A DNA stretch of 64,000 nucleotides. It comes from Acidobacteriota bacterium (GTDB taxonomy: Bacteria > Acidobacteriota > UBA4820 > DSQY01). Each line of letters starts with the position of its first letter. Position 1 is the first letter of the stretch. The translations under genes and the position numbers were made by a program. Positions 4,129 through 43,404 of this stretch are shown one piece after another. The notes beneath the pieces were generated by a model, which saw only the letters and a program-made list of their open reading frames with translations, had not been told where the DNA came from and made no database searches. Location: NCBI GenBank assembly GCA_049967655.1, contig JBMFSH010000012.1:5945-69944 (forward strand). Reading direction: 5' to 3'.

Positions 4129-5153
4129 CGAACCTCAGCCGCGCCCGGCCGCCGCTGGAACCGGTTGACGGCCCGGTCGTGTTCGGCGAGTGTTCGCGAG
4201 AAGTAGTGCGTCCCGTCGTTCCGGCTTACGAAGTAGAGGTAGTCGGATGGGGTCGGGTGGAGCACCGCCTCGAGGGAGGCCTTGCCGGGGCTGCAGATGG
4301 GGCCAGGCGGGAGGCCTGCGTGAAGATAGGTGTTGTAGGGACTCGCGTATGCCAAGTCCTGTCGGGTGAGGTACCCCCGGTAGACGCCGCCCATGGTTTC
4401 GGCGTACACGATGGTGGGGTCGGTCTGAAGCGGCATGCCGATGCGCAATCGGTTCAAGAAGACGTCGGCCACCAGCGGGCGCTCCTGCGGCGCGGCCGTC
4501 TCCTTCTCCACCAGGGAAGCCAGGGTGACCACCTCGCGGATCGGCATGCCACCCGAATTCGGCAGTCCGACCTTCTCCCACCAGGACCGAAAGCTCGCCA
4601 CGAGCACCTTCAGGACGGCCTCCTCGCGCAGATCCGGATCCATCAGATAGGTCTCGGGGAAGAGATACCCCTCCAGCGTGGTGGCCGAGGGGTCCAGGTC
4701 CCGGATCAGGGCCGGATCGGAGGTGAGCTTCAGGAATGTCTTCTCGCGGCCCAGGCCGGCGGCCGCCAGCAGGTGGGCCACCTCGTCGCGGCGGAGCCCT
4801 TCGGGGATGGTCACCTTGATGAGGATGACCTCTCCCTCGTTCAAGACCTGCACCACCTGAAGGGGCGTCATGGGCTTTTCGAAGCGGTAGGTCCCGGCCT
4901 TCAAAGTCTTGGGATGGCCGAACAGGGAGAAGGCCAGTTTCAGCGAGAAGCGGCTGCGGACGACCCCTTCCGCCGCCATCCGCTCCAGGACCTGTCCGGC
5001 GCTCATGCCCCTGGGCACGTGCACGAGGACGACCCTCGGCCTGGAGGGGTAAGGTTCGTGCCAGTCCCAGGCCAGCCAGGCCGCGAATAGGGCACAGACC
5101 GCGACCGCGACGAGCACGGTTCCCAGAGCCACCCGTCTCGCCCAGACCGTCAT
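4125..5153 (-). CDS. mltG: endolytic murein transglycosylase MltG (YceG family)
   Basis: N-terminal TM then YceG domain (…GMPLQTDPTIVYA…). Confidence 0.8.
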   Translation of the reverse strand: MTVWARRVALGTVLVAVAVCALFAAWLAWDWHEPYPSRPRVVLVHVPRGMSAGQVLERMAAEGVVRSRFSLKLAFSLFGHPKTLKAGTYRFEKPMTPLQVVQVLNEGEVILIKVTIPEGLRRDEVAHLLAAAGLGREKTFLKLTSDPALIRDLDPSATTLEGYLFPETYLMDPDLREEAVLKVLVASFRSWWEKVGLPNSGGMPIREVVTLASLVEKETAAPQERPLVADVFLNRLRIGMPLQTDPTIVYAETMGGVYRGYLTRQDLAYASPYNTYLHAGLPPGPICSPGKASLEAVLHPTPSDYLYFVSRNDGTHYFSRTLAEHDRAVNRFQRRPGAAEVR

Positions 5154-5569
5154 GGGGTACCGGCGTCCAGATAACTCTGGAGCAGGATGGCGGCGGCGAC
5201 CTGGTCCAAACGCCCCTTCTCCCTGCGCCGCCGCTCGCCGTGCTCTTGAAGCACCCGCGAGGCCTCACGGCTCGTGAGCCGTTCGTCGGCGAGCCGAACC
5301 GTCACCCCCGGCAGGCGGGCGGCGATCTCCTCGGCCAACGCGCGGGCCTCTCGGGCGCTCTCACCTTCGCCTCCCTCCATGTGAAGGGGGTGGCCGATGA
5401 GGATGGTGCTGACCCCGTGCTCGACCGCCACCGCGATCACGCGCCTGAGCGCCTCGCGGTGAGAGCTGATCTCCAGCGTGGGCAGGGGCCGGGCGATGGT
5501 CCTCGTCTCGTCCGAGACGGCCATCCCGACCCGCCGCTTTCCCCAGTCTACTGCCATCACTCTTCCCAT
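5150..5569 (-). CDS. ruvX: Holliday-junction resolvase-like RuvX/YqgF
   Basis: 139 aa, MAVDWGKRRVGMAVSD motif. Confidence 0.8.
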   Translation of the reverse strand: MGRVMAVDWGKRRVGMAVSDETRTIARPLPTLEISSHREALRRVIAVAVEHGVSTILIGHPLHMEGGEGESAREARALAEEIAARLPGVTVRLADERLTSREASRVLQEHGERRRREKGRLDQVAAAILLQSYLDAGTP

Positions 5570-5590
5570 GACGTCATCCTACAACGACCC

Positions 5591-5732
5591 AAATTCCGCG
5601 ATGGAAACGCGGGTGCCTCCGACTACCGCTCGGGTTCACCGGGGAAAGGCGTTGTCTCCTGGACGGGGAGGGCCATTCCCTCCCCGCTCCACGGGCCAAG
5701 CCCGTGGAGCCTGACCCCACCCTTGGTGCCCC
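5591..5732 (+). repeat. structured intergenic repeat, copy 1 (AAATTCCGCGATGGA…GGGGAGGGCCATTCCCTCCCC…CCACGGGCCAAGCCCGTGG…)
   Basis: about 90% identical to 33159-33293 and to the reverse complement of 13607-13795; two conserved hairpins. Confidence 0.7.
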
Positions 5733-6453
5733 TCTCGGCCACGTGGAGAGTGGCGATGCCGCCCGTCAGCGGATGCTGTCGAACCTCGGCAAAGCCGTTT
5801 CGCCGCATGGTCATGGCGAATTGCTCGGGCTCTGGAAAGCCCTGGACGGTGGCCGCGAGGTAACCATAGGGACCCCTGACGCGGCTGAAGAGCGCCCCGA
5901 TCCGGGGCAGCAGGCGGTGGAAATAGAGGCGGTAGAGGGGACCGAAGAGGCGGCCCCGCGGCTCCGAAAACTCCAGAACCACGAGCCGTCCACCGGGTTT
6001 GAGCACCCGGGCGGCCTCCGCGAGCCCCCGCTCCAGATCCTCGAAATTGCGCACCCCGAAGGCCACCGTAATGCCATCCACGCAGTCGTCGCGCAGGGGC
6101 AGGCGGAGCGCGTCCGCCTGTACCCAGCAGATCCCGCTCCCCTGACGTCGGGCCTTCTTCATCGCGATCTCCAGCATGGGTCCCGTAAAATCCAGGCCCA
6201 TCACCCTGGCGCCCGAACGCCTCGCCAGCGCGAAGGCGAGGTCTCCCGTGCCCGTGCAGAGGTCCAGGTAGAGGCCCCGAGGTTTGGGCTCCATGGCCCG
6301 GACAGCCATCCGTCTCCAGTAGCGGTCCACATTCAGAGATAGGGCGTGGTTCAGGAAATCGTAGGTGGGGGCGATGGCCCCGAACATGCGGGTCACCTCC
6401 CCGGCTTCCTTCCGCTGGGGGTCCGGAGCCACCCGGCGAACGGCCCTGATCAT
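5623..6453 (-). CDS. ubiE: demethylmenaquinone/ubiquinone methyltransferase UbiE/MenG; last ~30 codons lie inside repeat copy 1
   Basis: class I SAM MTase motifs (LDLCTGTGDLA, VLEFSEP); tail …GGVRLHGLGPWSGEGMALPVQETTPFPGEPER is encoded by the repeat. Confidence 0.8.
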   Translation of the reverse strand: MIRAVRRVAPDPQRKEAGEVTRMFGAIAPTYDFLNHALSLNVDRYWRRMAVRAMEPKPRGLYLDLCTGTGDLAFALARRSGARVMGLDFTGPMLEIAMKKARRQGSGICWVQADALRLPLRDDCVDGITVAFGVRNFEDLERGLAEAARVLKPGGRLVVLEFSEPRGRLFGPLYRLYFHRLLPRIGALFSRVRGPYGYLAATVQGFPEPEQFAMTMRRNGFAEVRQHPLTGGIATLHVAERGTKGGVRLHGLGPWSGEGMALPVQETTPFPGEPER

Positions 6454-7851: not shown

Positions 7852-9188
7852 TTCGGCCCCGCCTTCGACGTCCCCTTCACCAAGGTAAAGGAGGCCACGA
7901 TCTTGCCCCAGGCTTGCTCGGGCAGGACGAAGGCCACGCTGCGCTTGGCGGGGTGGGCGTACCAGGTTCCTGAGGAATCCCGGCCCAGCTCCACGCGGTC
8001 CGAGAAGCCCTGTCCCCGGAAGGTGATCGTCACGGCGGGCGGAGAGAGCCCGAGTTTACCGGGTTCCGTAAGGGGCACCGCCCGCTCACCGCGAAGGGAG
8101 GAGAGGCCATCGGCCAGAATGCTGGCTTGGGCCCCCTTGGGTGGGAGCTTCGGTTGGGTGAACACCCAGCCCAGCTTCTCGTCCCGCTTCAATGCGAGGG
8201 AGTAGAGGCCCGAGACGCCGATCTCCTGGACATCGTAGAAGTCGTGCGATATGAGGTTCATGGAGCGCAGCTTCTCCGGATCCTGGTCCAGGGACTTCAG
8301 CGAGTTGAGGGAGACGGCCATGACCGACGGGCGGTTGGAGACCCAGGCGTAGACCAGCCGCTTCTCGGGCGCGCCGCCGGGGACGGCCTTCCCGAGCTTG
8401 GCCTCGATGGTCTGGCCCTTGGCCGTCACCAGAATGTCGGTGGAGGGCGGATCGAGGCCGTAGGTGGACAGGTCGGCCGGCTTGTCCGAAACGTATTGGT
8501 CCACGGGGCAGAGGGAGATGTCGTCGAGGAGATTCTCGATCTGGTTGGTGTCCCCGCGGTCGCTGAAGGGGGCGGTGACGCTCCACCCTCCTGCGGGGTC
8601 GCGAGAGAGGGCGAGCGTCTCGGCTCCACCGCGCAGGACCTTCAGAGACTGGATGTCCGCCGTTCCGACCGTGAGGAGGTCCTTGGAGCGGAAGCTGGAC
8701 ACGGGTTCGAGGAGTAGGCTTTCGAGGTCCGGCGCCACCAGGGCGGTCCGGGCGCCGATCCGCACGTAGAGCCCTTCGTCCAGGGGCGCCTTGGCCCCCA
8801 CGTCCAGGACCACCGGCTTCGTCGGCCCCTTCAACGTCCACACGGCCCTGGGCGGGGAGAGGCCCAGCTCCGCCTCCGATGCGGTGGGTTCCACCCAGCG
8901 CAGGACCGTCGCCCTGGAGAGGCGGTCCAGGAAGCCCTCCACTCCGTAGCGGTCGGCGGCGTCGTCAACGGGCTGGCTCACTCGCCAGCCGCCTCCCTTT
9001 TCTTTGACCAGGGAAATCGCCCCCTGCCCGCTGCGGCTCAACTGGCTGACCTGGTCGGGTTTGAAGTCCACGAGACGGTTGCGCCGCTCGGCGATCTGCT
9101 CCGTGCTGGGCTGCTTCCGCTCCCAGAGGGCGATGAAGGAGACCAAGAGCGCCACCATGGCCAGCAGAATCCACGTGGATCTCTTCAT
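7848..9188 (-). CDS. DUF4340-domain protein (accessory to GldG-type ABC system)
   Basis: signal/TM N-terminus; sits downstream of the GldG-like gene as in known operons. Confidence 0.6.
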   Translation of the reverse strand: MKRSTWILLAMVALLVSFIALWERKQPSTEQIAERRNRLVDFKPDQVSQLSRSGQGAISLVKEKGGGWRVSQPVDDAADRYGVEGFLDRLSRATVLRWVEPTASEAELGLSPPRAVWTLKGPTKPVVLDVGAKAPLDEGLYVRIGARTALVAPDLESLLLEPVSSFRSKDLLTVGTADIQSLKVLRGGAETLALSRDPAGGWSVTAPFSDRGDTNQIENLLDDISLCPVDQYVSDKPADLSTYGLDPPSTDILVTAKGQTIEAKLGKAVPGGAPEKRLVYAWVSNRPSVMAVSLNSLKSLDQDPEKLRSMNLISHDFYDVQEIGVSGLYSLALKRDEKLGWVFTQPKLPPKGAQASILADGLSSLRGERAVPLTEPGKLGLSPPAVTITFRGQGFSDRVELGRDSSGTWYAHPAKRSVAFVLPEQAWGKIVASFTLVKGTSKAGPK

Positions 9189-10647: not shown

Positions 10648-11388
10648 CTATCTCCAACGCCGAGTCTGCATGGCCTGATACCCGAGGGCCAGAAAAAGAG
10701 CGGTTCCTGACAGGCAGTAGACCACCGATCGGCTGTCCACCACCCCCTTGGCGAAGCCCTGCATGATCGACCAAAGATCCACGTACTGAAGAATGGGCTT
10801 CCAGAAGGGATCGGTCACCAGGAAGGTGAGGATGGAGATCAGGATCAGCAGGAGCAGTATGGCGAAGCACAGGATGGCCGCCACCACCTGATTCTTGGAG
10901 ACCAGGCTCGTAAACAGGCCGATGGCGATGAAGAACATGCCCACCATCAGCACGCCCAGATAGCCCGAGATCACGGGGCCTGCGTCCACCTTCGAGTAGG
11001 CCGTGAGCGCCCAGACGTAAAGGACCGTGGGCAGCCAGGCCGCCGCGTAGAGAGCCATGGCGCCCAGATACTTGCCGATCACCACCTCCAGATCGGAGAC
11101 GGGAGCGGTCATGAGGGTCTCGATGGTCCCGGTCTTTCGCTCCTCGGCCCCCAGCTTCATGGTGATGACCGGGGTCATGACGATCATGAAGATCCAGAAG
11201 AAGGTGGTGCCGCCGAAGAAGAGAAGCATGGGCTGGGCCGAGAAGGCTCCGGGCTGACTCAGGGCCGCCAGGATCACGGAGAAGATGAATCCGTTCATGA
11301 GGAGGAAGGCGGCGATCACGATGTAGGCCATGGGGGCGAAGAAGTAGCTCGTCAATTCCTTCCGGGCGATGGCCATCACCGCTCTCAT
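10648..11388 (-). CDS. ABC-2 type transporter permease (GldF-like)
   Basis: six hydrophobic segments, ABC-2 family pattern. Confidence 0.7.
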   Translation of the reverse strand: MRAVMAIARKELTSYFFAPMAYIVIAAFLLMNGFIFSVILAALSQPGAFSAQPMLLFFGGTTFFWIFMIVMTPVITMKLGAEERKTGTIETLMTAPVSDLEVVIGKYLGAMALYAAAWLPTVLYVWALTAYSKVDAGPVISGYLGVLMVGMFFIAIGLFTSLVSKNQVVAAILCFAILLLLILISILTFLVTDPFWKPILQYVDLWSIMQGFAKGVVDSRSVVYCLSGTALFLALGYQAMQTRRWR

Positions 11389-12341
11389 GAGAGCACCTCC
11401 GGATTGTTCTCGTGGGTCATGATGGAGAGGAAGGCCTCCTCCAGCGAGACCTGCTGGACGCTCAACTCCAGAAGCGGCAGTCCGGCGGCGGCGCAGGCCC
11501 TGAAGATGCCCTCCCGCGCATCCACGCCCTGCGCCGTCAGAATGTGGAAGCGGGGCGGCCCTTCGGCTGCCGCCAGCCTCTCCACGCGCTCCACCCCCGG
11601 CACTCCTTCCAGGCAGCGCCGGGCCGCGTCGGCGTCCGCTGAGATGGTGCAGAGCAGCCCGGAGGCCTCGCCGCCGAGGCCCTGGCGAAGCTCGGAGACG
11701 GGGCCGTCGTAGAGCAGGGCTCCGTGATGGAGGATCAGGGCCCGGGAGCAGATGGCCTCCACCTCGGGCAGGATGTGGGTGGAGAGGATCACCGTGTGGT
11801 CGGCGCTCAGGGTCTTGATCAGCGAGCGGGTGTGCACGATCTGAACCGGATCCAGGCCCACCGTCGGCTCATCCAGGATCAGCACCGGTGGATTGGCAAG
11901 AAGGGCGTCGGCCAATCCTATCCTCTGGCGAAAGCCCTTCGAGCAGGCACCGATGATCCGGTCCTTGACTTCGGTCACCTCGCAGGCCTCCAGAACCTCC
12001 TGGATACGGCCCTTGCGCGTTTTTCCGGGAATGCCCTTGAGGGCCGCACGGAAGGCGAGATATTCCTGGACGCGCAGGTCCTCGTAGAGGGGGTTGTTCT
12101 CGGGCAGATAGCCGATGAGCCGGCGCACCGCCTTGGTGTCCTCCTGCGCCGAATGGTCACCGACGAAGACCTCGCCAGACGTGGGGGGGAGAAAACCTGT
12201 CATGATCCGAAGAGTGGTAGACTTGCCGGCCCCGTTGGGCCCGAGAAAACCCACGATTTCGCCGGGGCGGACTTGGAAGGAGACGTGATTGACGGCCGCA
12301 GTGTCGCCATACCTCTTGACCAGGTCCTTCACTTCGATCAT
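11385..12341 (-). CDS. ABC transporter ATP-binding protein (GldA-like)
   Basis: Walker A GPNGAGKST, signature LSADH…, Walker B ILDEPT. Confidence 0.85.
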   Translation of the reverse strand: MIEVKDLVKRYGDTAAVNHVSFQVRPGEIVGFLGPNGAGKSTTLRIMTGFLPPTSGEVFVGDHSAQEDTKAVRRLIGYLPENNPLYEDLRVQEYLAFRAALKGIPGKTRKGRIQEVLEACEVTEVKDRIIGACSKGFRQRIGLADALLANPPVLILDEPTVGLDPVQIVHTRSLIKTLSADHTVILSTHILPEVEAICSRALILHHGALLYDGPVSELRQGLGGEASGLLCTISADADAARRCLEGVPGVERVERLAAAEGPPRFHILTAQGVDAREGIFRACAAAGLPLLELSVQQVSLEEAFLSIMTHENNPEVLS

Positions 12342-12875: not shown

Positions 12876-13316
12876 TTAGCCCTTGATGGCGATACGCTTG
12901 GGTTTGGACTCCTCGGCCTTCGGGACGATGAGCTGCAAGATGCCGTCCTTGTAAGTGGCCGAGATCTTGTCGGCCTCCACTCGAGAGGGCAGGGTGAAGG
13001 AGCGCGTGAATCGGCCGTAGGCCCGCTCGATGCGATGGTAGGTCTCCTTTTGGGACTCCGCCTCGAACTTCCTTTCGCCGCGGATGGTGAGGAGGTTGTT
13101 CTCCAGGTGAACCTCGATGTCCTCCCGCTTCATGCCGGGCATGTCGGCCTCGATGACATACTGTCCCTCCTCTTCGCGCAGATCCACGGCGGGGCTCCAG
13201 GCTCCGTACTCCAATTCGGCTGACTGGGTTTTCCCGAAGTTTTCGTCGAAGAGACGGTTCAACTGATCATGCATGGTGAGCAGCTCCCGCATAGGGTTCC
13301 AACGACTGATGGCCAT
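12876..13316 (-). CDS. Hsp20/alpha-crystallin family small heat-shock protein
   Basis: alpha-crystallin domain (…PAVDLREEEGQYVIEADMPGMKREDIEV…). Confidence 0.85.
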   Translation of the reverse strand: MAISRWNPMRELLTMHDQLNRLFDENFGKTQSAELEYGAWSPAVDLREEEGQYVIEADMPGMKREDIEVHLENNLLTIRGERKFEAESQKETYHRIERAYGRFTRSFTLPSRVEADKISATYKDGILQLIVPKAEESKPKRIAIKG

Positions 13317-13360
13317 GTGTGTAACCTCCTTTCTGTGGTTCAGGATGCCGTTTCATCTGC

Positions 13361-13389
13361 ATCCGGCTATAATATAAAACCGCACAGTA
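13361..13389 (-). promoter_or_regulatory. sigma70-consensus promoter of hsp20 (TTGACA-N17-TATATT) within an AT-rich block
   Basis: reverse complement of tgtcaa(13384-13389)…aatata(13361-13366), exact 17-nt spacer, about 45 nt upstream of the start codon. Confidence 0.55.
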
Positions 13390-13606
13390 ATGTTGTCAAG
13401 TATTATACCAAAAGAACGCTCATATAGATTGCAACAAACTGATAATTCATAGGTTGTACGCGGAATGAGGGAGGCGAAGAGGCAGACTTTCCCAATCCCG
13501 CGATGGAACGGGGGAAAGAGCATGGAAAGCAGGTGGGACAAGGCATTGGAGAAGAGGCCCTAGTTCCCTATCAAGGGATTGGGGCGCCCTTGAGCCAAGG
13601 GCGGGA

Positions 13607-13795
13607 GGGCGCCAAGGGTGGGGTGAGGGTCCACGGGCTTGGCCCGTGGAGCGGGGCCCCGCAGGGCAATCTCCCGAACCGTCGGGCTTGGCTCGCGGTT
13701 CGGTGCGGCAAGGCCATGACCCTCCCCGTCCAGGGGACAACGTCTTTCCCCCGTGAGCCGTAGCCGAAGGCACCCGCGTATCCATCGTGGAATTT
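13607..13795 (-). repeat. structured intergenic repeat, copy 2 (inverted, with about 55-nt internal expansion)
   Basis: reverse complement aligns to copies 1 and 3; 5' end abuts the mutS stop codon. Confidence 0.65.
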
Positions 13796-13801
13796 GGGGG
13801 C

Positions 13802-16375
13802 TCAGGAGAGCTTGCGTTTGAGCCGTTCAAGGAGAAGAAGGGCATCCAACGGCGTCAGGCGATGAGGATCGGCTTGGCGGAGAGCGGTGACCACCGCCGC
13901 CTCGCGTCCGGGATCCTCTCCCGAGAAGAGAGTCGACTGCCGCGGCCGGGGCCGGACCTGCTCGGAGAGACCCACCTGCTCTCGCCGCCGCTCCAGCCGC
14001 TCCAGCACCTCGCGAGCCCTGGACACCACGGGTGCGGGCACTCCCGCCAGCTCCGCCACGTGGATGCCGTACGATTTATCCGCCGCCCCCGGCTCCACCA
14101 TCTTGAGGAAGTGGACGGTGCCGGCGTACTCGCGCACGGCCATGGTCAGATTCCGCACGCCGGGCAGGGTGCGGCCGAGCTCGGTGAGCTCGTGGTAATG
14201 GGTGGCAAAGAGGGTCCGGCATCCGATTCCCTCCGGCCCGCGCAGCGCCTCCACGACGGCCCAGGCGATGGCGAGGCCGTCGTAGGTGCTCGTGCCCCGT
14301 CCCACCTCGTCCAGGATGACCAGGGAGCGCACCGTGGCCCCCCGGAGGATGGCGGCCGTCTCGGTCATCTCCACCATGAAGGTCGAAAGCCCTCTGAGCA
14401 GGCTGTCCCCCGCCCCGACCCGGCAGTAGAGGCGGTCCGCCAACCCCACCGTAGCGCTCCTCGCGGGCACCCAGGAGCCCACGTGCGCCATGACGGCCAG
14501 GAGGGCCGTCTGCCTCAAATAGGTGGACTTTCCGCCCATGTTGGGCCCCGTCAGGAGGGTGACCTGCTTCTCCGCCGTATCCATCTCCACGGGGTTTGGC
14601 ACGAAGGGCCTGTGGCGTTCGTCCAGCTCCAGCACCGGGTGGCGAGCCTCCTCCATGGCGATCACCGGCTCCTCCACTATCACGGGCCGCACGTAGCCCC
14701 GTTCGCGAGCAAAGTGCGCGAAGCCCGCCAGGATGTCCTGGGAGGCGAGCTCGGCCGACACCTCCCGCAAGAGCGGTAGAACGGGGGCCAGTTCCTCAAC
14801 CAGTTCGCCCCACAGGCGCTCCTCCAGCGCGTAGCGATCGGCTCTGGCGGACAAAATCCGGCCCTCCAGCTCGCGCAATTCGGCAGTCACGAAGCGCTCC
14901 GCGTTCACGAGGGTCTGCCGGCGCTCATAGTCGGGGGGCACCTTGGGCAGATTGGCCTTGCTCACCTCGATAAAATAGCCGAACACGCGGTTGTAGCGGA
15001 TTTTTAGCGAGCCGATACCCGTCCGTCCGCGTTCCCTCGCCTCCACCTGCAGGATGGCATCGTGGGCGTTTTCCGACAGGCCCCTCAGGCGGTCCAGCTC
15101 GGGCAGGAACCCGCGCGCGAAGATCCCTCCCTCCCGGGCGTGGGCCGGCAGCGTCTCTTCGAGCTGTTCGGCCAGCCGGCGCGCCCAGGCCTGCACCTTA
15201 GGCAGGGCGGCCTCCAGCGCCTCGGAGCCTTCCCCTATTCCTCGAAGCAGAGCCAGCGCCTCGGGCATTTTATCGAGGGCCGCCCGGAGACCGCCTGCGT
15301 CTCGCGGGGAGGCGATGCCAGCGGCAAAGCGCGCCACGAGCCGGCCGAGATCGGGATACCCCCTCAACAGCGATCGCCACGCCGCCAGCTCGGCGGGCTT
15401 CCCCATCCACGCCGCCACCGTGGACTGGCGCGCCAAGATCCGCGCGCGGTCGGCGCAGGGGGTCAGGAGCCAGTCCCTCAGAAGCCTCCCACCCATGGGA
15501 GTGAGAGTCCCATCGAGGCATTGGAGAAGGCTGCCCCGCCTCCCGCCGCTCTCCTGACCGACCACCAGTTCCAGGTTCCGCCGGGTGGCCTCGTCCATGG
15601 CGAGGAAGGTGCCGGGCGTCTCGTACCTAGGCATCTTCAGCGTGGCGGCGCCTCGCTCTTTTACGTACGCCAGGAGGGCGCTGAGCGCCCCCAAGGGCTC
15701 GGGCTCTCCAGGGAGACCGGGCAGGCCGGGCGGGAGTCCAAGCCCCCCGGTCAACCGCTCCAGGGCTCGCCGGTGGGCGAACTCCTCGTCGGGAATGGGC
15801 GAGTTAGCCGCCTGGCCCACCTCCGGTACCGAGTCGTCCGATTCGGGATGGAGGAGCTCGGCGGGCCCCACCGCCCTGAGGCGCTCGATGGCCTCCTCGG
15901 GCCCGGACTGCCACACCACGACTTCGCCCGAAGAGAGGTCGGTCCAAGCCAAGCCCACCCTTGCCCCAACGGCGTTCCACGCGGCCAGAAAAACGGGCTG
16001 GCCGGCCTCCACCACCCCCTCCTCCAGGGCCGTGCCGGGAGTCACCACGCGGGTCACCTCCCGCCGAACGATCCCCTTGGCCTGGGCGGGATTCTCCACC
16101 TGGTCGCAGAGGGCTACCTTGTGGCCGGCCCGGATGAGGCGCCCGAGGTAGCTCTCCAGGGCATGATGGGGGATGCCGCACATGGGCATGGGATCGGCCT
16201 TGTCCCGGTCCCTCGTGGTCAGGGCGATTTCGAGGAGATCGGAGGCCAGGAGGGCATCAGGGCCGAACATCTCGTAGAAGTCGCCCATGCGGAAGAGGAC
16301 GATCTTGTCCGGGTGGGCATCCTTGACGCGCTGCCACTGCCGCATGGCAGGGGTAAGCTTCATCTCGCTCGGCAT
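13802..16375 (-). CDS. mutS: DNA mismatch repair protein MutS
   Basis: 857 aa, Walker A GPNMGGKSTY, MutS domains I-V. Confidence 0.9.
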   Translation of the reverse strand: MPSEMKLTPAMRQWQRVKDAHPDKIVLFRMGDFYEMFGPDALLASDLLEIALTTRDRDKADPMPMCGIPHHALESYLGRLIRAGHKVALCDQVENPAQAKGIVRREVTRVVTPGTALEEGVVEAGQPVFLAAWNAVGARVGLAWTDLSSGEVVVWQSGPEEAIERLRAVGPAELLHPESDDSVPEVGQAANSPIPDEEFAHRRALERLTGGLGLPPGLPGLPGEPEPLGALSALLAYVKERGAATLKMPRYETPGTFLAMDEATRRNLELVVGQESGGRRGSLLQCLDGTLTPMGGRLLRDWLLTPCADRARILARQSTVAAWMGKPAELAAWRSLLRGYPDLGRLVARFAAGIASPRDAGGLRAALDKMPEALALLRGIGEGSEALEAALPKVQAWARRLAEQLEETLPAHAREGGIFARGFLPELDRLRGLSENAHDAILQVEARERGRTGIGSLKIRYNRVFGYFIEVSKANLPKVPPDYERRQTLVNAERFVTAELRELEGRILSARADRYALEERLWGELVEELAPVLPLLREVSAELASQDILAGFAHFARERGYVRPVIVEEPVIAMEEARHPVLELDERHRPFVPNPVEMDTAEKQVTLLTGPNMGGKSTYLRQTALLAVMAHVGSWVPARSATVGLADRLYCRVGAGDSLLRGLSTFMVEMTETAAILRGATVRSLVILDEVGRGTSTYDGLAIAWAVVEALRGPEGIGCRTLFATHYHELTELGRTLPGVRNLTMAVREYAGTVHFLKMVEPGAADKSYGIHVAELAGVPAPVVSRAREVLERLERRREQVGLSEQVRPRPRQSTLFSGEDPGREAAVVTALRQADPHRLTPLDALLLLERLKRKLS

Positions 16376-32533: not shown

Positions 32534-33001
32534 CTAGACCAGCCCCCTGAGGTCCACGAGGACCTTGTCCATGTGGCCCTTGGCGCTGACCCTCGGATAG
32601 ACCTTCAGGAGCGTGCCGTCGCGCCCCGCCACGAAGGTGCTCCGGATCATGCCCATGGAGCGCCTCCCGTAGAGCACCTTCTCGCCCCAGGCCCCCACGG
32701 CCTCGCTGAGGGTACCCTCGACGTCGCTCAGCAGGGTGAAGGGGAGCTGGTGCCGCTCGATGAAGGCCGCGTGGGACTTGACCGAGTCCCTGGAGACGCC
32801 GGCCACGGCGTAGCCCAGCTTCCGGAACTCCTCCAAGCGGTCACGGAAGCCCTGGGCCTCCAGGGTGCAGCCGGGGGTGTTGTCCTTCGGGTAGAAGTAA
32901 AGCACGAGCCCCTTCGGCCCCGTCAGATCGGAGAATGACCTCTCCCGCCCGTCCTGGTCGGGAAGCTTGAAGAGTGGTAGCTTCTGGCCCTTTTCCAGCA
33001 T
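32534..33001 (-). CDS. bcp: thioredoxin-dependent peroxiredoxin Bcp
   Basis: …YFYPKDNTPGCTLEA…. Confidence 0.85.
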   Translation of the reverse strand: MLEKGQKLPLFKLPDQDGRERSFSDLTGPKGLVLYFYPKDNTPGCTLEAQGFRDRLEEFRKLGYAVAGVSRDSVKSHAAFIERHQLPFTLLSDVEGTLSEAVGAWGEKVLYGRRSMGMIRSTFVAGRDGTLLKVYPRVSAKGHMDKVLVDLRGLV

Positions 33002-33158
33002 GGTCGCCTCTCCCTCTATGAGGGGTGCCGCCGTCTCGCGGCGGTGAATCCCCCTTTTTTTATTTTAACCCGCGAGGAGCGCCCCCTCTTCCATTCAGCC
33101 TGAACCGGTTCCCTCTGTGCCCCTGCGTCTCTGTGGTCAGCCTCTCCTTCGCGCCTCC

Positions 33159-33293
33159 AAATTCCGCGATGGAGCGCGGGTGCCTCCGGCTGCTGTTCGG
33201 GTTCACCGGGGAAAGGCGTTGTCTCCTGGGCGGGGAGGGCCATTCCCTCCCCGCCCCACGGGCAAAGCCCGATGGGGCCCCACCTCCACCTGG
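33159..33293 (+). repeat. structured intergenic repeat, copy 3
   Basis: aligns to copy 1 over about 125 nt; lies in a divergent promoter region. Confidence 0.7.
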
Positions 33294-33321
33294 ACCTCGC
33301 TCCCGCGCTATACTCGCCGCG

Positions 33322-34349
33322 TGAAGGCCCCGCTCTCCCCCCTCCGCCTCTACCTCGCCGGGATCAAGATCACGGTCTCCAACCCCGAGCTCCCCCTCTG
33401 GCAGTGGGGCGCAGCCCTCGTGCTGGGCGTCGGCTCCCTCGCCCCCCTGGCCGCCGGGGCCTTCTACCTCTTCCATCCCCTGTGGGCCTCCGGCCTCCGA
33501 CACGAGAGCCCCGATGCCCTTCTGCTTCGAGTGCTGGAGGTGCTCATCCCCCGCCTGCCGTCCCTCTTCCTCCTCGCCGCCCTCTTCCTCCTCTGGGTGG
33601 CCCTCCTTTGCCTGCCCTACCTGTACGTCCAGGCGGGCCTCGCCGGCCTTCTCGCCTCGGCCTTCTTGCGCCTGCCTCCGGAGGGGCCGGCCTCCTCCTC
33701 CCGCCTCGGTTACTCGAAGGCCTTCCGCTGCTTCCGCTATGCCGAGTTCCGCGAAGAGGCCCGCCGGCGAGTCTGGGCCGTGAGCCTGCTCGCCTCCTAC
33801 TACTCGCTCGCCGGCCTGGCCCTGGCGGCGGCCGTTCCCCTCGCGGGGTTCGCCCTCCACGCCCTCCTCCGCCCGAACCCGTGGGCGACCTATGCCGGGC
33901 TCCTCGGCGCCGGGGCTTTGGCCGTGGCCGAGGTCCCCCTCTTCGTGCTCCTCAAGGTCCACGCCCGCTACGCCCTGGCCTGCCTCGTGCTCTTCGACCT
34001 CCCGCCCGGCCGGAGCGTGGCGAGGGCCACCCGGCTCTTCCGGAGCCGGCCCCTCCCGGTGCTGGCCCTTTTCGGCATCGGCCTCCTCCTCGCCCTCATC
34101 CTGGCGGGGCTCTTCGCCGCGCTGGACGCCCCGATCGAGCTCCTCTCCTGGATTCCGCGGGCGAGCCTGTGGCTCGTGGGGCTCCGCGTGCTCCTGGCCC
34201 TGCTCCAGAACCTGGGAGGACAGGGGCTGAAGGTGGCGGGGCTCGGGGCAGCCATGGCGCTCTGCCGCGAGGAGGCCGGGCGCCCGGCTCCGGGGCCGCC
34301 GCGGCCGCGGGGCCGCCTTCCGGTTGACAGCTCCGCGGCCGCGGGGTAA
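33322..34349 (+). CDS. hypothetical polytopic membrane protein
   Basis: multiple TM helices; putative GTG start. Confidence 0.45.
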
Positions 34350-36551: not shown

Positions 36552-38564
36552 TCACGGGCATCTCGTGGAATCGTAAGATTGCCCGTCGTCAATGGGCGTA
36601 TCCTTCTGATCGTGCGGAACGCCAACTCTCACGGTGCCGCTGCAAGTGCCACCCTTCCCATCGCCGGCGGTGAACGAGATGGCATACACACGCCCGTTGC
36701 CCGTCCCCGAGCGCTCGGCGCGCACCTGCGCCTGGGCAGAACCCACTCCAAAGCCGTCGGGGCACGTATCTCCGTCGCCCAAGCCATTGGTGGGCTCGTC
36801 CTGCGTGATGCCGGTGATCTGGATGGTCACCGGATCGCCGTCCGGATCGGTGACGCCCGTGATCGCGATGGAGACCAGCTTGTGGTTGGGGGGCCAGAGC
36901 AGGGCCGGGCTTGCCGAGGCCTGGCTGCAATCGGGAGGGCGGTTAGGAGGCATCACGCCGGTCGCCACTTGAAGCTGGTTCGACGCGCAATTGTTGCTTT
37001 CGTTCGTCTCGAAGACCTGGTGGTCCGCGTCCGCGCAGGCGTCGAGGTAGTAATTGCCAGCGGGCAGGTTCGGCGGAATGACGTAGGGCGCCGTTTCCAC
37101 CGAGCTCTTCTCGCCAGGGGCGAGGGCAGGGATGGCGCGTTCCCCGACGACCGTCGCGGTTGCCGGATCGACCGGACTCGAGGTCGAGAGGTAATATCGC
37201 GTGATGCTCGGGCCGGCGGGGAGAATCCCTATGTTCATCGTCGTCTCGGTAATGTAAAAGGTCTGGCCCGGGGCGGAGATGAGCAGCGGGGGAATGAAGA
37301 TTGGCACGGTGAGATCCGGTCCACCCGTCCAGGAGACCGTGACGGGTTCCGAGAAGACACCGTTGGCTGTGCAATCGGTGAGCGACTCGCCTTGTCGTCC
37401 GTGGCTCTTTCCGGTAGGTGTGCCCTTTCCTTTCGTGGCTGCGCCCTGCCGGGCGTACAACATTCCCGTGTTCGCCCGCAAGGTGTCCACACCGACCTTG
37501 GTACCTGTATACGTAAAGCTGAAGGTCCCGTCGCCCGCCGTGGTCCCGTGGGTTCCCTGGCCGCGCTGTGGGCCGTCGGTCACCTCAATGTCGACGTAGT
37601 TGTTCGCGATGGGCTGGCCGTTGGCGACATTCACCAACATGGCCGTCGCGGTATGTGGCTGGCCAATCGCATGCGTGGCTGACGCCGGTGTCAGGGTGAG
37701 CTTGGGCGCGCAGGGCCAAGGAAGATTCTGTTGCAGGTAGAGGGCGTTGTAGTACACGAGCGCGTAGCCCTCGCTCGTGCGCTGCGAGGGCGCCGCGGCC
37801 TGAGTCGCATCGATCACCGCCTGGAGCTTCGCGTTCACCATGGCTTGGTCCTGCGCTACCGCCGCTTGACGGGCGGCGGAAAGGTTGGATTGAATCGTCG
37901 AGAGCAAGGCCGCATCCGAAATCCATCCAAGCTGGCCGGCGGTGGCAACATCGCTAATGAATTCGTTCCAATGAGCAAACGAGCCTGGATCCACACCCAA
38001 GGGACCAAGGGTCTGAACTTTTCGGATATAGCTGAGATTGATCGGATCCGATTCGCTGGGGAGCAACTCCCCCCCCTCGTAGGTAGCCAATGCATCGAGG
38101 TAGGGTTGGATCCATGGGTTGATCCACGCTTCACGAATGGTGGGTGGCCGCGGCGACTGGAAGCTGAACGGACCGGCACTCGTACCAGGTGATGGCGGGT
38201 TGGGCATATCATCCCACATCGCCCAGTCCACGAAGGGCTGATTGGGCACGAGAACGAAAGGTGGTTGAGGGGGATTCGAGACAATACCTATTGGTGCCCA
38301 GCCTGCCGACGAACCGAGCGTGACGGAGGTTTCTGCCCCGCCTACGACAATCTCAAAATCCGAGAGCTCTGCGGTGTTTGAGGCTGGGTTGGTCAAGGTA
38401 TATCCGTACATGTACGAGCCTGAATTGGGATCCTCGGTGACTGCCACTTGTATGGTTATGCCTTGAAACACTGGCGGTACGGGCTGCGCCCGAAGCGCCA
38501 CCGAGAACAGAGAGACCATGAGCCAGCCCAGGCAAGCAGTACGCCCACAAAATTTTGTAACCAT
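36552..38564 (-). CDS. secreted CARDB-domain protein with conserved C-terminal LWPPNHK…LRAERSG…VPHDQ domain
   Basis: signal peptide; CARDB motif …YYLDACADADHQVFETNESNN…; lower GC than surroundings. Confidence 0.65.
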   Translation of the reverse strand: MVTKFCGRTACLGWLMVSLFSVALRAQPVPPVFQGITIQVAVTEDPNSGSYMYGYTLTNPASNTAELSDFEIVVGGAETSVTLGSSAGWAPIGIVSNPPQPPFVLVPNQPFVDWAMWDDMPNPPSPGTSAGPFSFQSPRPPTIREAWINPWIQPYLDALATYEGGELLPSESDPINLSYIRKVQTLGPLGVDPGSFAHWNEFISDVATAGQLGWISDAALLSTIQSNLSAARQAAVAQDQAMVNAKLQAVIDATQAAAPSQRTSEGYALVYYNALYLQQNLPWPCAPKLTLTPASATHAIGQPHTATAMLVNVANGQPIANNYVDIEVTDGPQRGQGTHGTTAGDGTFSFTYTGTKVGVDTLRANTGMLYARQGAATKGKGTPTGKSHGRQGESLTDCTANGVFSEPVTVSWTGGPDLTVPIFIPPLLISAPGQTFYITETTMNIGILPAGPSITRYYLSTSSPVDPATATVVGERAIPALAPGEKSSVETAPYVIPPNLPAGNYYLDACADADHQVFETNESNNCASNQLQVATGVMPPNRPPDCSQASASPALLWPPNHKLVSIAITGVTDPDGDPVTIQITGITQDEPTNGLGDGDTCPDGFGVGSAQAQVRAERSGTGNGRVYAISFTAGDGKGGTCSGTVRVGVPHDQKDTPIDDGQSYDSTRCP

Positions 38565-38789
38565 GGCTCAGCCTCCAACCAATTCATAGTGGATTTCTTG
38601 TTTTTCATAGCGAGTAAGCAGCAGGGCTGCTGCGAGGCGATTGAGAAGGTTCTCCTGAACGCGGGCTGCCGCTCCGCCCCCGATCCACGGGGCAGCAGTG
38701 GTTCACGTCGGCGGACGTGCCCACCCGGTGGAGCTCATGTGGGCAGTCCCAGTTGTCCTGGAAATCCAAAATACCCCCCCAGGGAAGGC

Positions 38790-39553
38790 TCATATCGTTG
38801 AAGGAAAGCCTGACCCACACCCCGTCATGTTGTGGTAGCTGGCCCGGTAATTCTGGGCGAGTTGCACCAGCTTTTTGGCCATCGCTGGTTTCACGTAATC
38901 ACCCACAGGATGATCCCCGGCATTACGGACAACCACGAGAGAGGGATCCGAAGGGAGTTCGACAAGCCCGTCCACGTGAAGCCGGACGCCCATTTGAGAG
39001 TAGCCCGTGCGGCCGCTGGGGTCGGAAGGGTCCACGTGCCAGCAGTCGTCAGGAACAATGTGGTAGTTAGGGGAGCGATGCACCGGGCTGTGATTCGAAC
39101 CACTCCGGAGCACTGTGGATGGTACTTGTAGCCTGTCCATATTTGTCCGCCGGTGTCGCCGGTGAAGGTGTTCGTATCCGCAACACCCGAGAGATCCGAA
39201 TACAGACCGCCCGTCGTCATGGCGACGTCGCCCGAGCGCGGGTGGACGTGACCGCCTTCGTAATACAGAATCGTGGCGGGATCTTGCAGGCCATCTGTGG
39301 AAAAGAACTCTGTCCAGTCCTCGTGGCAATTCAGCGGTAATCCGGTGTAGAGGTCGTAGCACCCTACCTGAAAGGCGTCGAAGTCAAGTGGCACTGCGCG
39401 CAGGGAGGAACACTTCCCATAAGTCTGTGGGATGGTAGGGCTTGCGTCCCACCAGTACCAGGGCAGCTCGGTTTGAGCGTATGTTCCCAGGCTCAGTACA
39501 AGAGTAAGCAGGGTAACCGTGAGAATGACCGTGGTGCCGCCGAGACGAACCAT
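38790..39553 (-). pseudogene. secreted hypothetical hydrolase-like protein, frameshifted
   Basis: coding sense switches frame near 39100-39135 between overlapping ORFs 38891..39613 and 38790..39362; strong AAGGAGG RBS before ATG 39553. Confidence 0.5.
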
Positions 39554-39724
39554 ACAAACCTCCTTTCCAGGCAACGAGCTAGTTGATGGTATGTATGGTC
39601 CCCAATTCTTCACATATCAATGGTTTCTGTGTTGAAACCCCTCCCTGTCTTACCGCCCCTCCTCCGTACAAGTCACGTCCCCCGCCCGTGGTGTGGTATG
39701 CTGAAGTCATCTCCGGAGGACTTC

Positions 39725-42634
39725 ATGACACCCATCGAGTTCATCCACAAGTGGCGGGACGCGGCGTTGTCGGAGCGCTCGGCGTGCCAGCAGCACTTTC
39801 TGGACCTGTGCGAGCTGGTGGGCCACCCGAAGCCGGCGGAGGTGGACAAGACGGGCGAGTCCTTCACCTTCGAGCGCGGCGCGGCCAAGACCGACGGCGG
39901 CGACGGCTGGGCGGACGTCTGGAAGCGGGGCTTCTTCGGCTGGGAGTACAAGGGCCGCCACGCCAACCTCGCCAAGGCCTACGGCCAGCTCCTCCAGTAC
40001 CGGGAGGCGCTGGAGAACCCGCCCCTGCTCGTGGTGTGCGACATGGACCGCCTGGAGATCCACACCAACTTCACGGGGACGCGCACCGAGGTCCACGCGC
40101 TGCGCCTCGTGGAGCTGGACATGCCCCGCAGCCGGGAGATTCTGCACGCCCTCTTCTTCGACCCGGAGAAGCTCCGCCCCGGCGCCACCAGCGCCTCCAT
40201 CACCACCGAGGCCGCCGCCCACATCGGCGAGATCGCCCAGCGCCTGCGCGCCCGAGGCGAGCAGCCGGCCCAGGTGGCGCGCTTCCTCGACCGCCTCGTC
40301 TTCTGCCTCTTCGCCGAGGACATCGGCCTGCTGCCCGAGGCGCTCTTCTCGCGCCTCCTCCACAAGACCCGGGACGATCCGCCCCGCTTCCAGAAGCTCG
40401 TCTCGGACCTCTTCGAGGCCATGGCCAAGGGCGGCGATTTCGGCATGGACACGATCCGCTGGTTCAACGGCTCGCTCTTCGCCCACGGGCCCGTCCTGCC
40501 GCTGGAGGAGGGGGAGCTGGCCATCCTCGACCGGGCCGCCGCCCTGGACTGGAGCGCCGTGGACGCCTCCATCTTCGGCACCCTCTTCGAGCGGGGCCTC
40601 GACCCGGACAAGCGCTCCCAGCTCGGCGCCCACTACACGAGCCGCGCCGACATCGAGGCCCTGGTGGAGCCCGTGGTCATGGCGCCCCTTCGCCGCCGCT
40701 GGCAGGAGGTGCGCGCGCGGGCCGAGGAGGCCCTGGCGGCCCTCGACCGCCGGCCGGGCCGCAAGGCCCTCACGCCGCAGGCCGCCGCGCGCATCCGCGA
40801 CAGGGCCTCGGGCATCGCGGGCGCCTTCCTCTTCGAGCTGCACACCCTCACCGTCCTGGACCCGGCCTGCGGCTCGGGCAACTTCCTCTACGTGACGCTC
40901 CAGAAGCTCAAGGACCTGGAGAAGGAGGTCGGCGTCTGGGCCGTGGGGCGAGGGCTCGGTCAGTTCCTGCCCATGGTCCACCCGCACCAGCTCTACGGCA
41001 TCGAGGTGAACCCCTACGCCCACGAGCTGGCCTAGATGACCGTCTGGATCGGCTACCTCCAGTGGATCAGCGCCAACGGCTTCGGCCTGCCCCACGACCC
41101 CGTCCTCGAATCGCTGGAGCGCCACTTCCTCTGCCGCGACGCCATCCTCGACCTGGGCGACCCGGATCATCCGAAGGAGCCCGAGTGGCCCGAGGCCGAC
41201 TGCATCGTCGGCAACCCGCCCTTCCTGGGGGGGAAGATCCTGAGGCGCGAGCTGGGCGATTCGTACGTGGACCGGCTCTTCGCCCTGTGGGACGGCCGCG
41301 TGCCGCGCGAGGCCGACCTGTGCGCCTACTGGTTCGAGAAGGCGAGGGACCAGGTGGAGGCGGGGCGCTGCCGGCGCGCCGACCTGCTCGCCACCCAGGG
41401 CATCCGCGGCGGGGCCAACCGCAAGGTCCTGGAGCGGATCAAAGAGACGGGCGAGATCTTCTTCGCCGAGAGCGACCGCCCGTGGATCCTCGACGGCGCC
41501 AACGTCCACGTCAGCATGGTGGGCTTCGACCGGGGGGAGGAGACGGCGCGCCTCCTGGACGGAAAGGCCGTGCCGGTGATCCACGCCAACCTCACCGCCG
41601 CGGCGGACACCACCCAGGCGGCGCGGCTTCCCGAGAACCGGGGCCTCGCCTACATGGGCGACACCAAGAGGGGGCCCTTCGATATTCCCGAGGCCCGCGC
41701 CCTCGACTGGCTTCAGAGGCCCAACCCGCACGGGCGACCCAACTCGGACGTGGTCGTGCCCTGGGTCAACGGCTTGGACGTGACGGGCCGGCCGCGCTCC
41801 CTGTGGATCGTGGACTTCGGCGCGGCGATTGCCGAGGAGGCTGCGGCCCGGTACGAGGCTCCCTTCGAGTACGTGCGCGAGCGGGTGAAACCGGAACGGG
41901 ATAAGTCGCGAAGTACGGTTGGGATTTGGTGGCAACATGAACGAGCCAGGCTGGACATGCGGGAGGCGTTGGCGAACGTGCCGCGCTTCCTGTCCACGGT
42001 GGCCGTCTCCAAGCATCGGCTCTTCACCTGGATGCGATCGCCCACATTGCCGGACCACCAGGTCTTCGCCTTTGCCGGCTCGGACGACTATCTCTTCGCC
42101 CTCCTCCACTCGCGCTTCCACGAGGCGTGGGCGCTGAAGTTGGGCACGCGGTTGGAGACAAGGCCCCGCTACACCCCCACGACCTGCTTCGAGACCTTCC
42201 CCTTCCCCTGGCCGCCGGGACACGAGCCGGCGGAGGACCCGCGCGTGCGGGCCATCGCCGACGCCGCCCGGGAGCTGAACCGCCTCCGGGAGGGCTGGCT
42301 CAACCCGCCCGAGTGGACGCGGGAGGAGATCCTCACCTTCCCCGGCTCCGCGGAGGGCCCCTGGGGCCGCTTCGTCACGGAGCCCGACGCGCGCGGCATC
42401 GGCACCGTCCGCTACCCCCGTCTCGTCCCCAGGGACGAGGCCAGCGCCGTGGCCCTCAAGGCCCGCACCCTCACCGGCCTCTACAACCAGCGCCCCACTT
42501 GGCTCGCCAACGCGCACCAAACCCTCGACGCCGCCGTCGCCGCCGCCTACGCCTGGCCCCCCGACCTCCCCGACGAGCAGATCCTCCAACGCCTCCTCGC
42601 CCTCAACCGCGAGAGGGCGGGGAAGAGTGTTTAG
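39725..42634 (+). pseudogene. MmeI-family Type IIL restriction-modification enzyme, interrupted by in-frame TAG at 41033-41035
   Basis: N-terminal nuclease motif D-x9-EYK (DVWKRGFFGWEYKG), MTase motif I VLDPACGSGNFL (ORF1), motif IV IVGNPPFLGG (ORF2); ORF1 39620..41035 and ORF2 41036..42634 are in the same frame; alternative start 39698. Confidence 0.7.
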
Positions 42635-42708
42635 TTATCCGTTAGCAGCGAGGCACTAGCCGCCGGGTCGAAAAGGTTGGGAGCAATTGCTGCTTAGAGG
42701 AGGGTCCT

Positions 42709-43404
42709 ATGGCACTGAGGGTTAAGAGAAGAACAGTATCCGATTTCGTTAGGCGAAAGGTCATTCACCTCGCGGGCAACCGGTGCTCGTTTTGCCCGGA
42801 GGACGACGTTAGCATCCTGCAACCGCACCACCTCACCGCTGTTTCCGAGGGCGGTTCCGACGACTGGGAGAACTAGATCGCAGTGTGTCCAACCTGCCAC
42901 GAAAAGATCCACAGGGGAACGATATCTACTGCTGAGGCCCTTGCCAGAAAGGCCCTGCAGCCGGTGCCGTCAACTCGCCGCGAGCAAAGCAAGGGCACGG
43001 CGCCTATCGTGGAGATCCAAGGCGACTTGCATCAAAGCACGGTGGCTGTGGGTGCCACCGTGAACATCCGGACCAGTGGTCGAGGGAAGCCGAAGCTACT
43101 GCCGGCACCGGACTCCCTGGGGGCAGCGCCCTGTAAGCTTCGATATTGCCGCTATCTAGTCGACAGATACCATGAATTCAAGCGATCAGAAGTGGGAAAG
43201 GACCAGATAAACTACGCGATTCTCCACGGTTCCATCAAGAGGGAATTCAAGGCCGCCCTTCCGAACATTCCGGCGCACCGCTTCGAAGATGTAGCGGAGT
43301 ATCTGCAAGGCAGAATCCTAAAGAGCAAGGTTGGCCGCAATCTCAACGCTAAAGGGCAGAAAGTGTTTGAGGACTTCGAGGAATTCCGTCAAAGGCACTG
43401 CTGA
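42709..43404 (+). pseudogene. HNH endonuclease with C-terminal domain of unknown function, in-frame TAG at 42874-42876
   Basis: CSFCPEDD…HHLTAVSEGGSDDWEN*IAVCPTCHEKIH is a textbook HNH motif broken at the conserved Leu position; GGAGGG RBS; lower GC. Confidence 0.6.

Follow-up and report, generated by a model that had tools for sequence, protein, structure and literature searches.

A probable new MITE family with a repeatable hairpin module in an uncultured bacterium

Several families of small repeats are scattered between bacterial genes. The Correia elements (CREE/NEMIS) of Neisseria are small, non-coding and gene-adjacent. They measure about 100-160 bp, carry terminal inverted repeats (TIRs) of about 20-26 bp, TA duplications, stable stem-loops and IHF and promoter motifs, occur as full-length and internally deleted size classes, and can be co-transcribed with their neighbours. 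The BOX elements of Streptococcus pneumoniae are built from two terminal modules around a middle module, about 45-50 nt long, whose copy number varies; to our knowledge, they have neither clear target-site duplications (TSDs) nor a known mobilising enzyme. Elements derived from IS200/IS605 are not known to possess TIRs or TSDs, carry different subterminal hairpins at their two ends and insert 3' of a fixed tetra- or pentanucleotide.

Prokaryotic MITEs are shorter than 500 bp and have TIRs of 4-30 bp as well as direct repeats that fade with age. They form stable stem-loops, are found fused with host ORFs, also occur as partial copies without TIRs or direct repeats, and are usually described as AT-rich (PMC10969869). 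In the Chunjie family of Geobacter, conserved TIRs and direct repeats are present in complete copies and missing from many partial ones, and the Rickettsia palindromic elements (RPE) insert into protein-coding genes and add residues to the host proteins (PMC10969869). The ERIC or RU-1 (IRU) sequences of enterobacteria are imperfect palindromic intergenic repeats, in which internal insertions at fixed positions give rise to longer variants and of which occasional intragenic copies extend host ORFs (PMC2759123, PMC3184786). REPs, according to PMC3733652, are 20-40-nt palindromic units, often marked by a GTAG/CGTC tag, with which a RAYT transposase is associated.

Here we address three repeats in a 64-kb stretch of DNA, which is referred to as the window. 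With a probability of roughly 0.8, they represent a new MITE family, lineage-restricted and with a hairpin module that can be repeated, i.e. non-coding, non-autonomous DNA transposons. The three repeats are homologous to each other: an HMM built from them recovers each of the copies (nhmmer E 2e-47, 8e-43 and 4e-40) and detects no fourth copy in the 64-kb window, the best other match being no better than E 0.28. They share a 22-nt core motif, GGGGAAAGRCGTTGTCYCCTGG, which occurs exactly three times in the window with 0 occurrences expected. A preliminary description of this DNA had listed three copies, motifs shared among them, and ruvX, ubiE, mutS and bcp as flanking genes. All three points hold: nhmmer and the exact motif place the copies at about 5588-5737 (+), 33157-33300 (+) and 13607-13798 (minus strand, a part of the second copy, see below), the core motif has no further match, and the neighbours are indeed RuvX, UbiE, MutS and an AhpC/TSA (Bcp-like) protein (Table 1). 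Copy 1 lies antisense to both of its neighbours, copy 2 is in sense orientation downstream of mutS, and copy 3 in sense orientation upstream of a gene. An extension of copy 1 into ubiE (to 5792), as suggested by nhmmer, was rejected for its low posterior probability.

Table 1. Positions of the repeat copies, their parts and the neighbouring genes within the window.
Feature	Position	Strand	Remarks
Copy 1	5588..5737	+	Short derivative: internal deletion, right module lost; nhmmer
Copy 2	13489..13798	-	Full-length, ~310 nt, between mutS stop codon and hsp20 promoter
Copy 3	33157..33300	+	Short derivative between bcp and membrane-protein gene
Left TIR of copy 2	13780..13798	-	CCCAAATTCCACGATGGAT
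Right TIR of copy 2	13489..13507	-	Reverse complement ..CCCAATCCCGCGATGGA; same end in L009, L010, L012, L003
Right-hand module	13508..13606	-	In copy 2, missing in copies 1 and 3; homologous in L009, L010, L012, L011, L003 (alignments)
Internal hairpin module	13663..13716	-	CCGAACCGCGAGC-CAA-GCCCGACGGTTCGG plus GAGATTGCCCTGCGGGG; deleted in copies 1 and 3
Deletion-created hairpin, copy 1	5665..5685	+	GGGGAGGG-CCATT-CCCTCCCC
Hairpin B, copy 1	5686..5710	+	GCTCCACGGGC-CAA-GCCCGTGGAGC; conserved in all copies
RuvX	5150-5569	-	Neighbour of copy 1
UbiE ORF	5623-6453	-	Neighbour of copy 1
MutS	13802-16375	-	Neighbour of copy 2
hsp20	12876-13316	-	Other neighbour of copy 2
AhpC/TSA peroxiredoxin (Bcp-like), bcp	32534-33001	-	Neighbour of copy 3
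Membrane-protein gene	GTG start 33321	+	Downstream of copy 3; third-position GC 0.93

Some features of the surrounding DNA were recorded in passing. Upstream of hsp20 (13340-13400, minus strand), a near-consensus promoter, TTGACA-17-TATATT (13399-13371), is followed by the inverted repeat GGATGCAG...GGCATCC just before the ribosome-binding site. Promoter and inverted repeat are conserved in contigs L003, L015, L019 and L022, in which the remaining spacer diverges; the feature is possibly a control element of the heat-shock response or an RNA thermometer. In the spacer between bcp and the membrane-protein gene, the plus strand has a GC hairpin and, after it, a long T-run (33025-33066), with no plus-strand gene upstream. 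A TATACT box (33310-33323 region) precedes the GTG start codon of the membrane-protein gene by only 5 nt, and judging from this spacing the gene may have a leaderless mRNA. Elsewhere in the window, a plus-strand gene for an MmeI-family type IIL restriction-modification protein is split into two ORFs (39620-41035 and 41036-42634), which are in the same frame and parted only by the stop codon of the first. Since the gene sits in a stretch (37750-43250) of 54-59% GC within a window of 67% GC, it is probably a horizontally acquired defence gene that was inactivated (or recoded).

Copy 2 turned out to be 118 nt longer (13489-13798) than previously described. Its right end was located by a 15-nt search with the 5' motif, which produced an inverted match with two mismatches at 13493-13507, 100 nt past the end reported before. 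The end thus located is identical to the inverted 5' end of copy 3 at 21/25 positions, and 0/300 shuffled sequences scored as well. Copy 2 is accordingly bounded by imperfect TIRs, CCCAAATTCCACGATGGA and CCCAATCCCGCGATGGA, and matches positions 2-328 of a full-length model built from five copies (nhmmer, E 1e-84). The preliminary description had found neither TIRs nor TSDs because its coordinates were truncated. The first statement is wrong for copy 2; a perfect 5-bp duplication flanks a copy outside of the window (L012, see below).

As scans of DNA collections for the core motif had given no close copies, elements beyond the window were approached through protein databases, which were queried with translations of the element; gene callers were expected to call ORFs across the element in GC-rich genomes. 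A six-frame chimeric protein query gave a single match, P0121, which is weak (E 0.08) but real, and the ORF spanning copy 2 matched P0123, P0124 and P0125. Two matches of the representative search, P0122 and P0126, were dropped as eukaryote-like repetitive proteins. Each of the contigs behind P0121 and P0123-P0125 (L009-L012) contains the element. With the full-length model, contig L003 proved to have a copy at either end and L019-L027 one downstream of hsp20; no element was detected in L005 and L006, the relatives with 68% identity. At least six further copies lie outside the window (L009, two in L010, L011, L012, two in L003, and L019-L027), in contigs that come from close relatives and in four others of metagenome or MAG origin. 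Scans for exact matches to the core GGGAAAGNCGTTGTCNCCTGG gave two chance matches in the GTDB representative genomes and two in the JGI metagenomes, and no others. This core motif is specific to a near-identical subfamily and absent from L010-L012, and these scans therefore say little about the wider family. A scan of viral contigs for the right terminus found nothing, and blastn of a full copy against plasmids yielded only short chance matches inside rpoD and tetR genes. The RuvX protein of the window had no exact match on record; for its MutS, the identity amounts to 92% with a metagenomic protein, 68% with several MAG proteins and 60% with an Acidobacteriota-labelled protein. Among named relatives, the nearest, at 53-60% identity, are MAGs labelled 'Acidobacteriota bacterium'. 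The host of the window is an uncultured bacterium and the family is lineage-restricted.

The route through protein databases also illustrates how the element inflates ORF calls. P0121 and P0123-P0125 are public hypothetical proteins or C-terminal extensions of real proteins that derive from ORFs across the element, and these element ORFs are annotation artefacts of the repeat. In the window, the UbiE ORF gains 35 spurious-looking codons, and element-crossing ORFs are found at 13447-13845 (minus), 33117-33320 (plus) and 5623-5727 (minus). ORFs of 132 aa and 410 aa cross copies. Moreover, metagenome assemblies break at element copies: contigs L003 and L004 begin and end inside copies, as expected of a dispersed repeat in short-read assembly.

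In an alignment of seven copies, the canonical unit measures about 310-330 nt, and non-coding full units span about 260-330 bp overall. The unit consists, in this order, of the left terminus CCCAAATTCCGCGAT(G/T)G, a GC-rich body, the internal hairpin module, hairpin B, a right module of about 110 nt and the inverted left terminus. All copies measured are 145-327 nt long with a GC content of 0.61-0.71, in a surrounding genome of 67% GC. TIRs are present in every copy that retains both ends (copy 2, L009, L010, L012 and L019), with 13-18 matching positions, among them 16/17 in L012 and 18/20 in L010. The G/T variant in GCGAT(G/T)G is identical at the two ends of each copy. Copies 1 and 3 are both truncated: a common internal deletion has removed about 50 nt from each, and the right-hand ~110 nt, including the right TIR, are lost as well. 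Reading frames are shifted by indels from one copy to the next and nearly all six are open, which leaves none distinguished as coding.

The size classes reflect an internal module of about 53 nt, which is absent from copies 1 and 3 and from L009, single in copy 2 and L010-L012, and present as a tandem (2.0-2.4x) in L019 and L003. It had been taken for an expansion of about 55 nt specific to copy 2. The hairpin, of about 54 nt, is real, but the polarity is reversed: the module is present in 4/7 aligned copies from four sources and deleted in copies 1, 3 and L009, and from this distribution it is the ancestral state and the deletion derived. The same applies in part to the two hairpins regarded as conserved. 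Both exist, but GGGGAGGG-CCATT-CCCTCCCC is limited to the internally deleted subfamily, since it was created by the internal deletion. This deleted sub-lineage occupies three different loci in two sources and must therefore have multiplied after the deletion arose. The right ends of copies 1 and 3 lie within about 5 nt of each other, a coincidence which is unexpected for independent decay and only partly explained by microhomology at copy 1.

Two further arrangements were observed among the copies outside the window. In L010 (173-596), a complete copy (270-596) adjoins the partial left half of another (173-270), and the join point is exactly the hairpin-loop position at which other copies have the internal module. 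Either a nested self-insertion or a chimeric assembly accounts for this. A diverged subfamily with 2.0-2.4 tandem hairpin modules of 52-53 nt is represented by L019 (2674-2779) and L003 (3733-3860 and 1-45). The module loop reads GCGAAGC in this subfamily and GC-NAA-GC at that position in the others; GCGAAGC is a motif that forms an unusually stable DNA mini-hairpin.

Copy 1 stands in place of the last 24 ubiE codons, 18 nt upstream of ruvX. The last 72-78 nt of ubiE in relatives (24 residues after VAER) are missing here, along with the right module of the element. The junction between copy 1 and ubiE falls inside a shared motif, GCCC(C)TCTCG (5728-5737), and a 9-nt stretch at the junction, CGAGAGGGC, is common to the element (reverse strand) and the ubiE gene of L013. 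An insertion close to the ubiE stop codon, after which a deletion occurred between the two identical 9-nt stretches, would probably have given rise to copy 1. As a consequence of the present arrangement, the ubiE frame runs 35 codons into copy 1. The Pfam match of UbiE stops at residue 239 of 276, and the gap between ubiE and ruvX now measures 53 nt, compared to 25 nt or an overlap in relatives.

Comparison of occupied and empty sites provides evidence for mobility. The ubiE-ruvX site is empty in at least 12 contigs of relatives (L013-L027), whose RuvX proteins are 86-92% identical and whose spacer is 25 nt long, and in L005, a relative with 68% MutS identity, the two genes overlap by 4 nt without an element. 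The spacer between mutS and hsp20 measures 116-180 nt in four relatives (L003, L015, L019, L022) versus 485 nt in the window, and the difference is exactly copy 2, which is placed directly after TGAGCC. In the L019/L003 lineage, on the other hand, a diverged copy is located downstream of hsp20 and a second one upstream of mutS, and both of these sites are empty in the window and in L013/L015. Three sites are polymorphic when the window is compared with the L013/L015 and L019/L003 lineages. In L009, a copy interrupts a DUF2867 gene. When the element (262 nt) was removed in silico, a contiguous Pfam match was obtained, covering 15-142/142 of the DUF2867 profile at 111.8 bits, versus 16-99 at 71.3 bits for the called protein. 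With 262 nt between the flanking codons, this insertion shifts the frame and truncates the gene.

The copy in L012 is flanked by a perfect 5-bp TSD, GTTCA, which directly abuts the TIRs (8168-8172 and 8498-8502). In L009, the 4-bp sequence GTTT is present on both sides (11347-11350 and 11609-11612). The TSD is clear in the former copy and plausible in the latter; none was found at copy 2 and the L019 copy, and no TSD consistent across all copies emerged in the several registers tried. The left flanks differ among copies (CAACGA, GAGCC, GCGCCT, GTTCA, AGTTTG), and flanks of different copies show no homology beyond the element. A search among 30 ORFs of the window (Pfam) and the called genes of the fetched loci revealed no transposase or autonomous element with the termini of the family. 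As a separate observation, sequences at or near the insertion points resemble each other: GTTCA(C) at the L012 TSD, GTTT(AC) in L009 and GGTTTAC at the right flank in L010 (597-603), with a similar sequence, AGTTCACG, at the empty ubiE-ruvX site of L013 (8417-8424). By their likeness, they hint at a possible target preference for GTTYAC.

Alternatively, the repeats could have moved as single-stranded DNA by means of a tyrosine (HUH/Y1) transposase, which would recognise the hairpins rather than TIRs and make them large REP/BIME-like or IS200/IS605-derived, palindrome-associated elements. We consider this unlikely. The 17-20-bp inverted-repeat termini, with sequence variants that match at both ends, and the perfect TSD at L012 argue against it, even though the body is dominated by GC-rich perfect hairpins with co-varying stems, copy 2 and the L019 copy lack a TSD, and short forms without the right TIR exist at two loci. 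Full units of 260-330 nt are far above the 20-40 nt that PMC3733652 gives for REPs, and neither a RAYT nor a TnpA-like gene was present in the scanned ORFs or in the genes called at the loci. As to the individual assignments, REP/BIME was set aside on a unit of 145-330 nt with TIRs and on ORFs scanned that include no RAYT-like gene, and an IS200/IS605-derived element on the presence of TIRs, the 5-bp TSD at L012 and the differing left flanks.

The hairpins themselves have been preserved. The preliminary description had looked to covariation in a larger alignment, and this is what RNAalifold detected in the seven copies: the consensus structure comprises 49 pairs with 95% of cells paired, and six pairs show compensatory double changes, versus 0-1 when partners were slid by 1-3 columns. 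The internal hairpin pairs through three different stem sequences (AACC/GGTT, ATTC/GAAT and TTCC/GGAA), and three pairs of the internal module carry compensatory changes across subfamilies. In hairpin B (z -6.5), one pair is C-G in four copies and U-A in three. Compensatory changes and pairing through three stem sequences indicate that the hairpins are maintained, and compensatory changes of this kind are usual in MITEs. Fold z-scores range from -1.9 to -2.6 for single copies and from -4.4 to -6.5 for isolated hairpins. The variable stem in which substitutions between copies 1 and 3 had been said to leave pairing possible does not belong to this evidence; it is absent from the seven-copy consensus structure, and the substitution is a single A-U to G-U change.

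These structures raise the possibility that the repeats are small structured RNA genes or cis-regulatory RNA elements which are multi-copy by chance, the hairpins being the functional product. The stability of the hairpins, the 95% of paired cells and the six compensatory pairs would be in keeping with such a family, but the remaining evidence makes it quite improbable. No Rfam family matched at gathering score in the 64 kb, and permissive thresholds (E up to 10) gave only noise (at most 18.6 bits, E of at least 0.69). No sigma-70-like promoter or intrinsic terminator was detected within the copies or next to them. The two strands are about equal in folding (-49.9 versus -46.5 kcal/mol for the reverse strand in alifold, with similar single-sequence energies), i.e. 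there is no strand preference. An excess of G-U pairs on the aligned strand (30 versus 4) was considered as evidence for RNA and rejected by this two-strand comparison; it is uninformative because the structure had been chosen on that strand. In addition, the copies have mixed orientations to genes, one lies inside a coding sequence, and the locus is not conserved among close relatives. Equal folding of the strands and the lack of promoter, terminator and Rfam match therefore point to palindromic DNA typical of MITEs and not to a strand-specific RNA gene; neither an own promoter or terminator nor strand-specific structure sets these copies apart. The preliminary description had left the choice between a REP/MITE-like element and a small structured RNA family: TIRs, one clean TSD, empty sites and an interrupted coding sequence support the MITE, whereas the RNA gene finds no support in Rfam, promoter, strand and orientation.

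The hairpin modules might rather be functional parts in mobility, either as recognition hairpins of an HUH transposase or as a structured RNA of guide or bridge type that a recombinase would employ in trans. If so, the short copies 1 and 3, which have no right TIR, would not be debris but a mobile unit in their own right, which would explain both the ~5-nt coincidence of their ends and the pairing through three stem sequences, but we regard this idea as very doubtful. Least probable is that the repeats are immobile debris, i.e. remnants of the ends of a larger insertion sequence, or pieces dispersed through recombination or duplication, the small unit itself never having transposed: 2/3 window copies are truncated, copy 1 is tied to a flanking deletion and L010 has a chimeric or nested arrangement, but complete units of the same length class with both termini reside at unrelated loci in at least four sources (copy 2, L009, L010, L012), the internally deleted sub-lineage multiplied after its deletion to reach three loci in two sources, and the flanks lack homology beyond the element.

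Taken as MITEs, the repeats are small and non-coding, have TIRs and are dispersed in copies that differ in presence and absence between relatives. A transposase encoded elsewhere in the genome would bind the two termini and move the element in trans, and transposition would sometimes leave a 4-5-bp target duplication. Copy 2 is a complete element whose insertion lies immediately behind the mutS stop codon. Copies 1 and 3 would belong to a decayed sub-lineage that lost the internal hairpin module first and the right end second, and at copy 1 this loss of the right end would continue into ubiE, taking its last 24 codons. Insertion next to or into housekeeping genes would be recent. Mobilisation in trans, the identity and type of the transposase and any effect on the expression of neighbouring genes are what we infer from the sequences. 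The element marks recent genome flux in a poorly known uncultured lineage, as sites differ at 86-92% RuvX or MutS identity. Host genes are affected in that the 3' end of ubiE is altered and the ubiE-ruvX spacer widened, and that a DUF2867 gene is disrupted in another genome. The hairpin module of variable copy number is an example of how elements grow and shrink, and leaves the understanding of MITEs unchanged.

When compared to known systems, the family is previously undescribed and its kind, a widespread type of genomic parasite, is ordinary. It agrees with the description of prokaryotic MITEs in size, TIRs, stem-loops, partial copies and fusions with host ORFs, has a clear direct repeat at one copy and a plausible one at a second, and departs from the description in its GC-richness (0.61-0.71). 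Like the Correia elements, it has size classes from internal deletion, TIRs, stem-loops and dispersal beside genes, but it differs in its length of 260-330 bp, its GC content of 61-71%, a non-TA duplication of 4-5 bp where visible, and the absence of a detected promoter motif. Its modular build with a middle hairpin module of about 53 nt that varies in number resembles BOX, from which it is distinguished by longer TIRs, one clean TSD and another host. With ERIC it shares imperfect palindromes between genes, length variants of internal origin and occasional copies inside genes, but ERIC is 127 bp long and occurs only in Gammaproteobacteria. As in RPE, host genes are entered: the UbiE ORF takes its final 35 codons from copy 1, and the DUF2867 gene contains the copy of L009; however, RPE insertions are typically in-frame and tolerated, whereas that in L009 is frame-shifting and gene-truncating. 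With Chunjie, the family has in common complete copies with TIRs next to partial copies, in a different host. Correia, BOX, ERIC, RPE and Chunjie are taken as unrelated in sequence and are separated from the family by description and host; descriptions, hosts and base composition together set it apart from Correia, ERIC, BOX and RUP.
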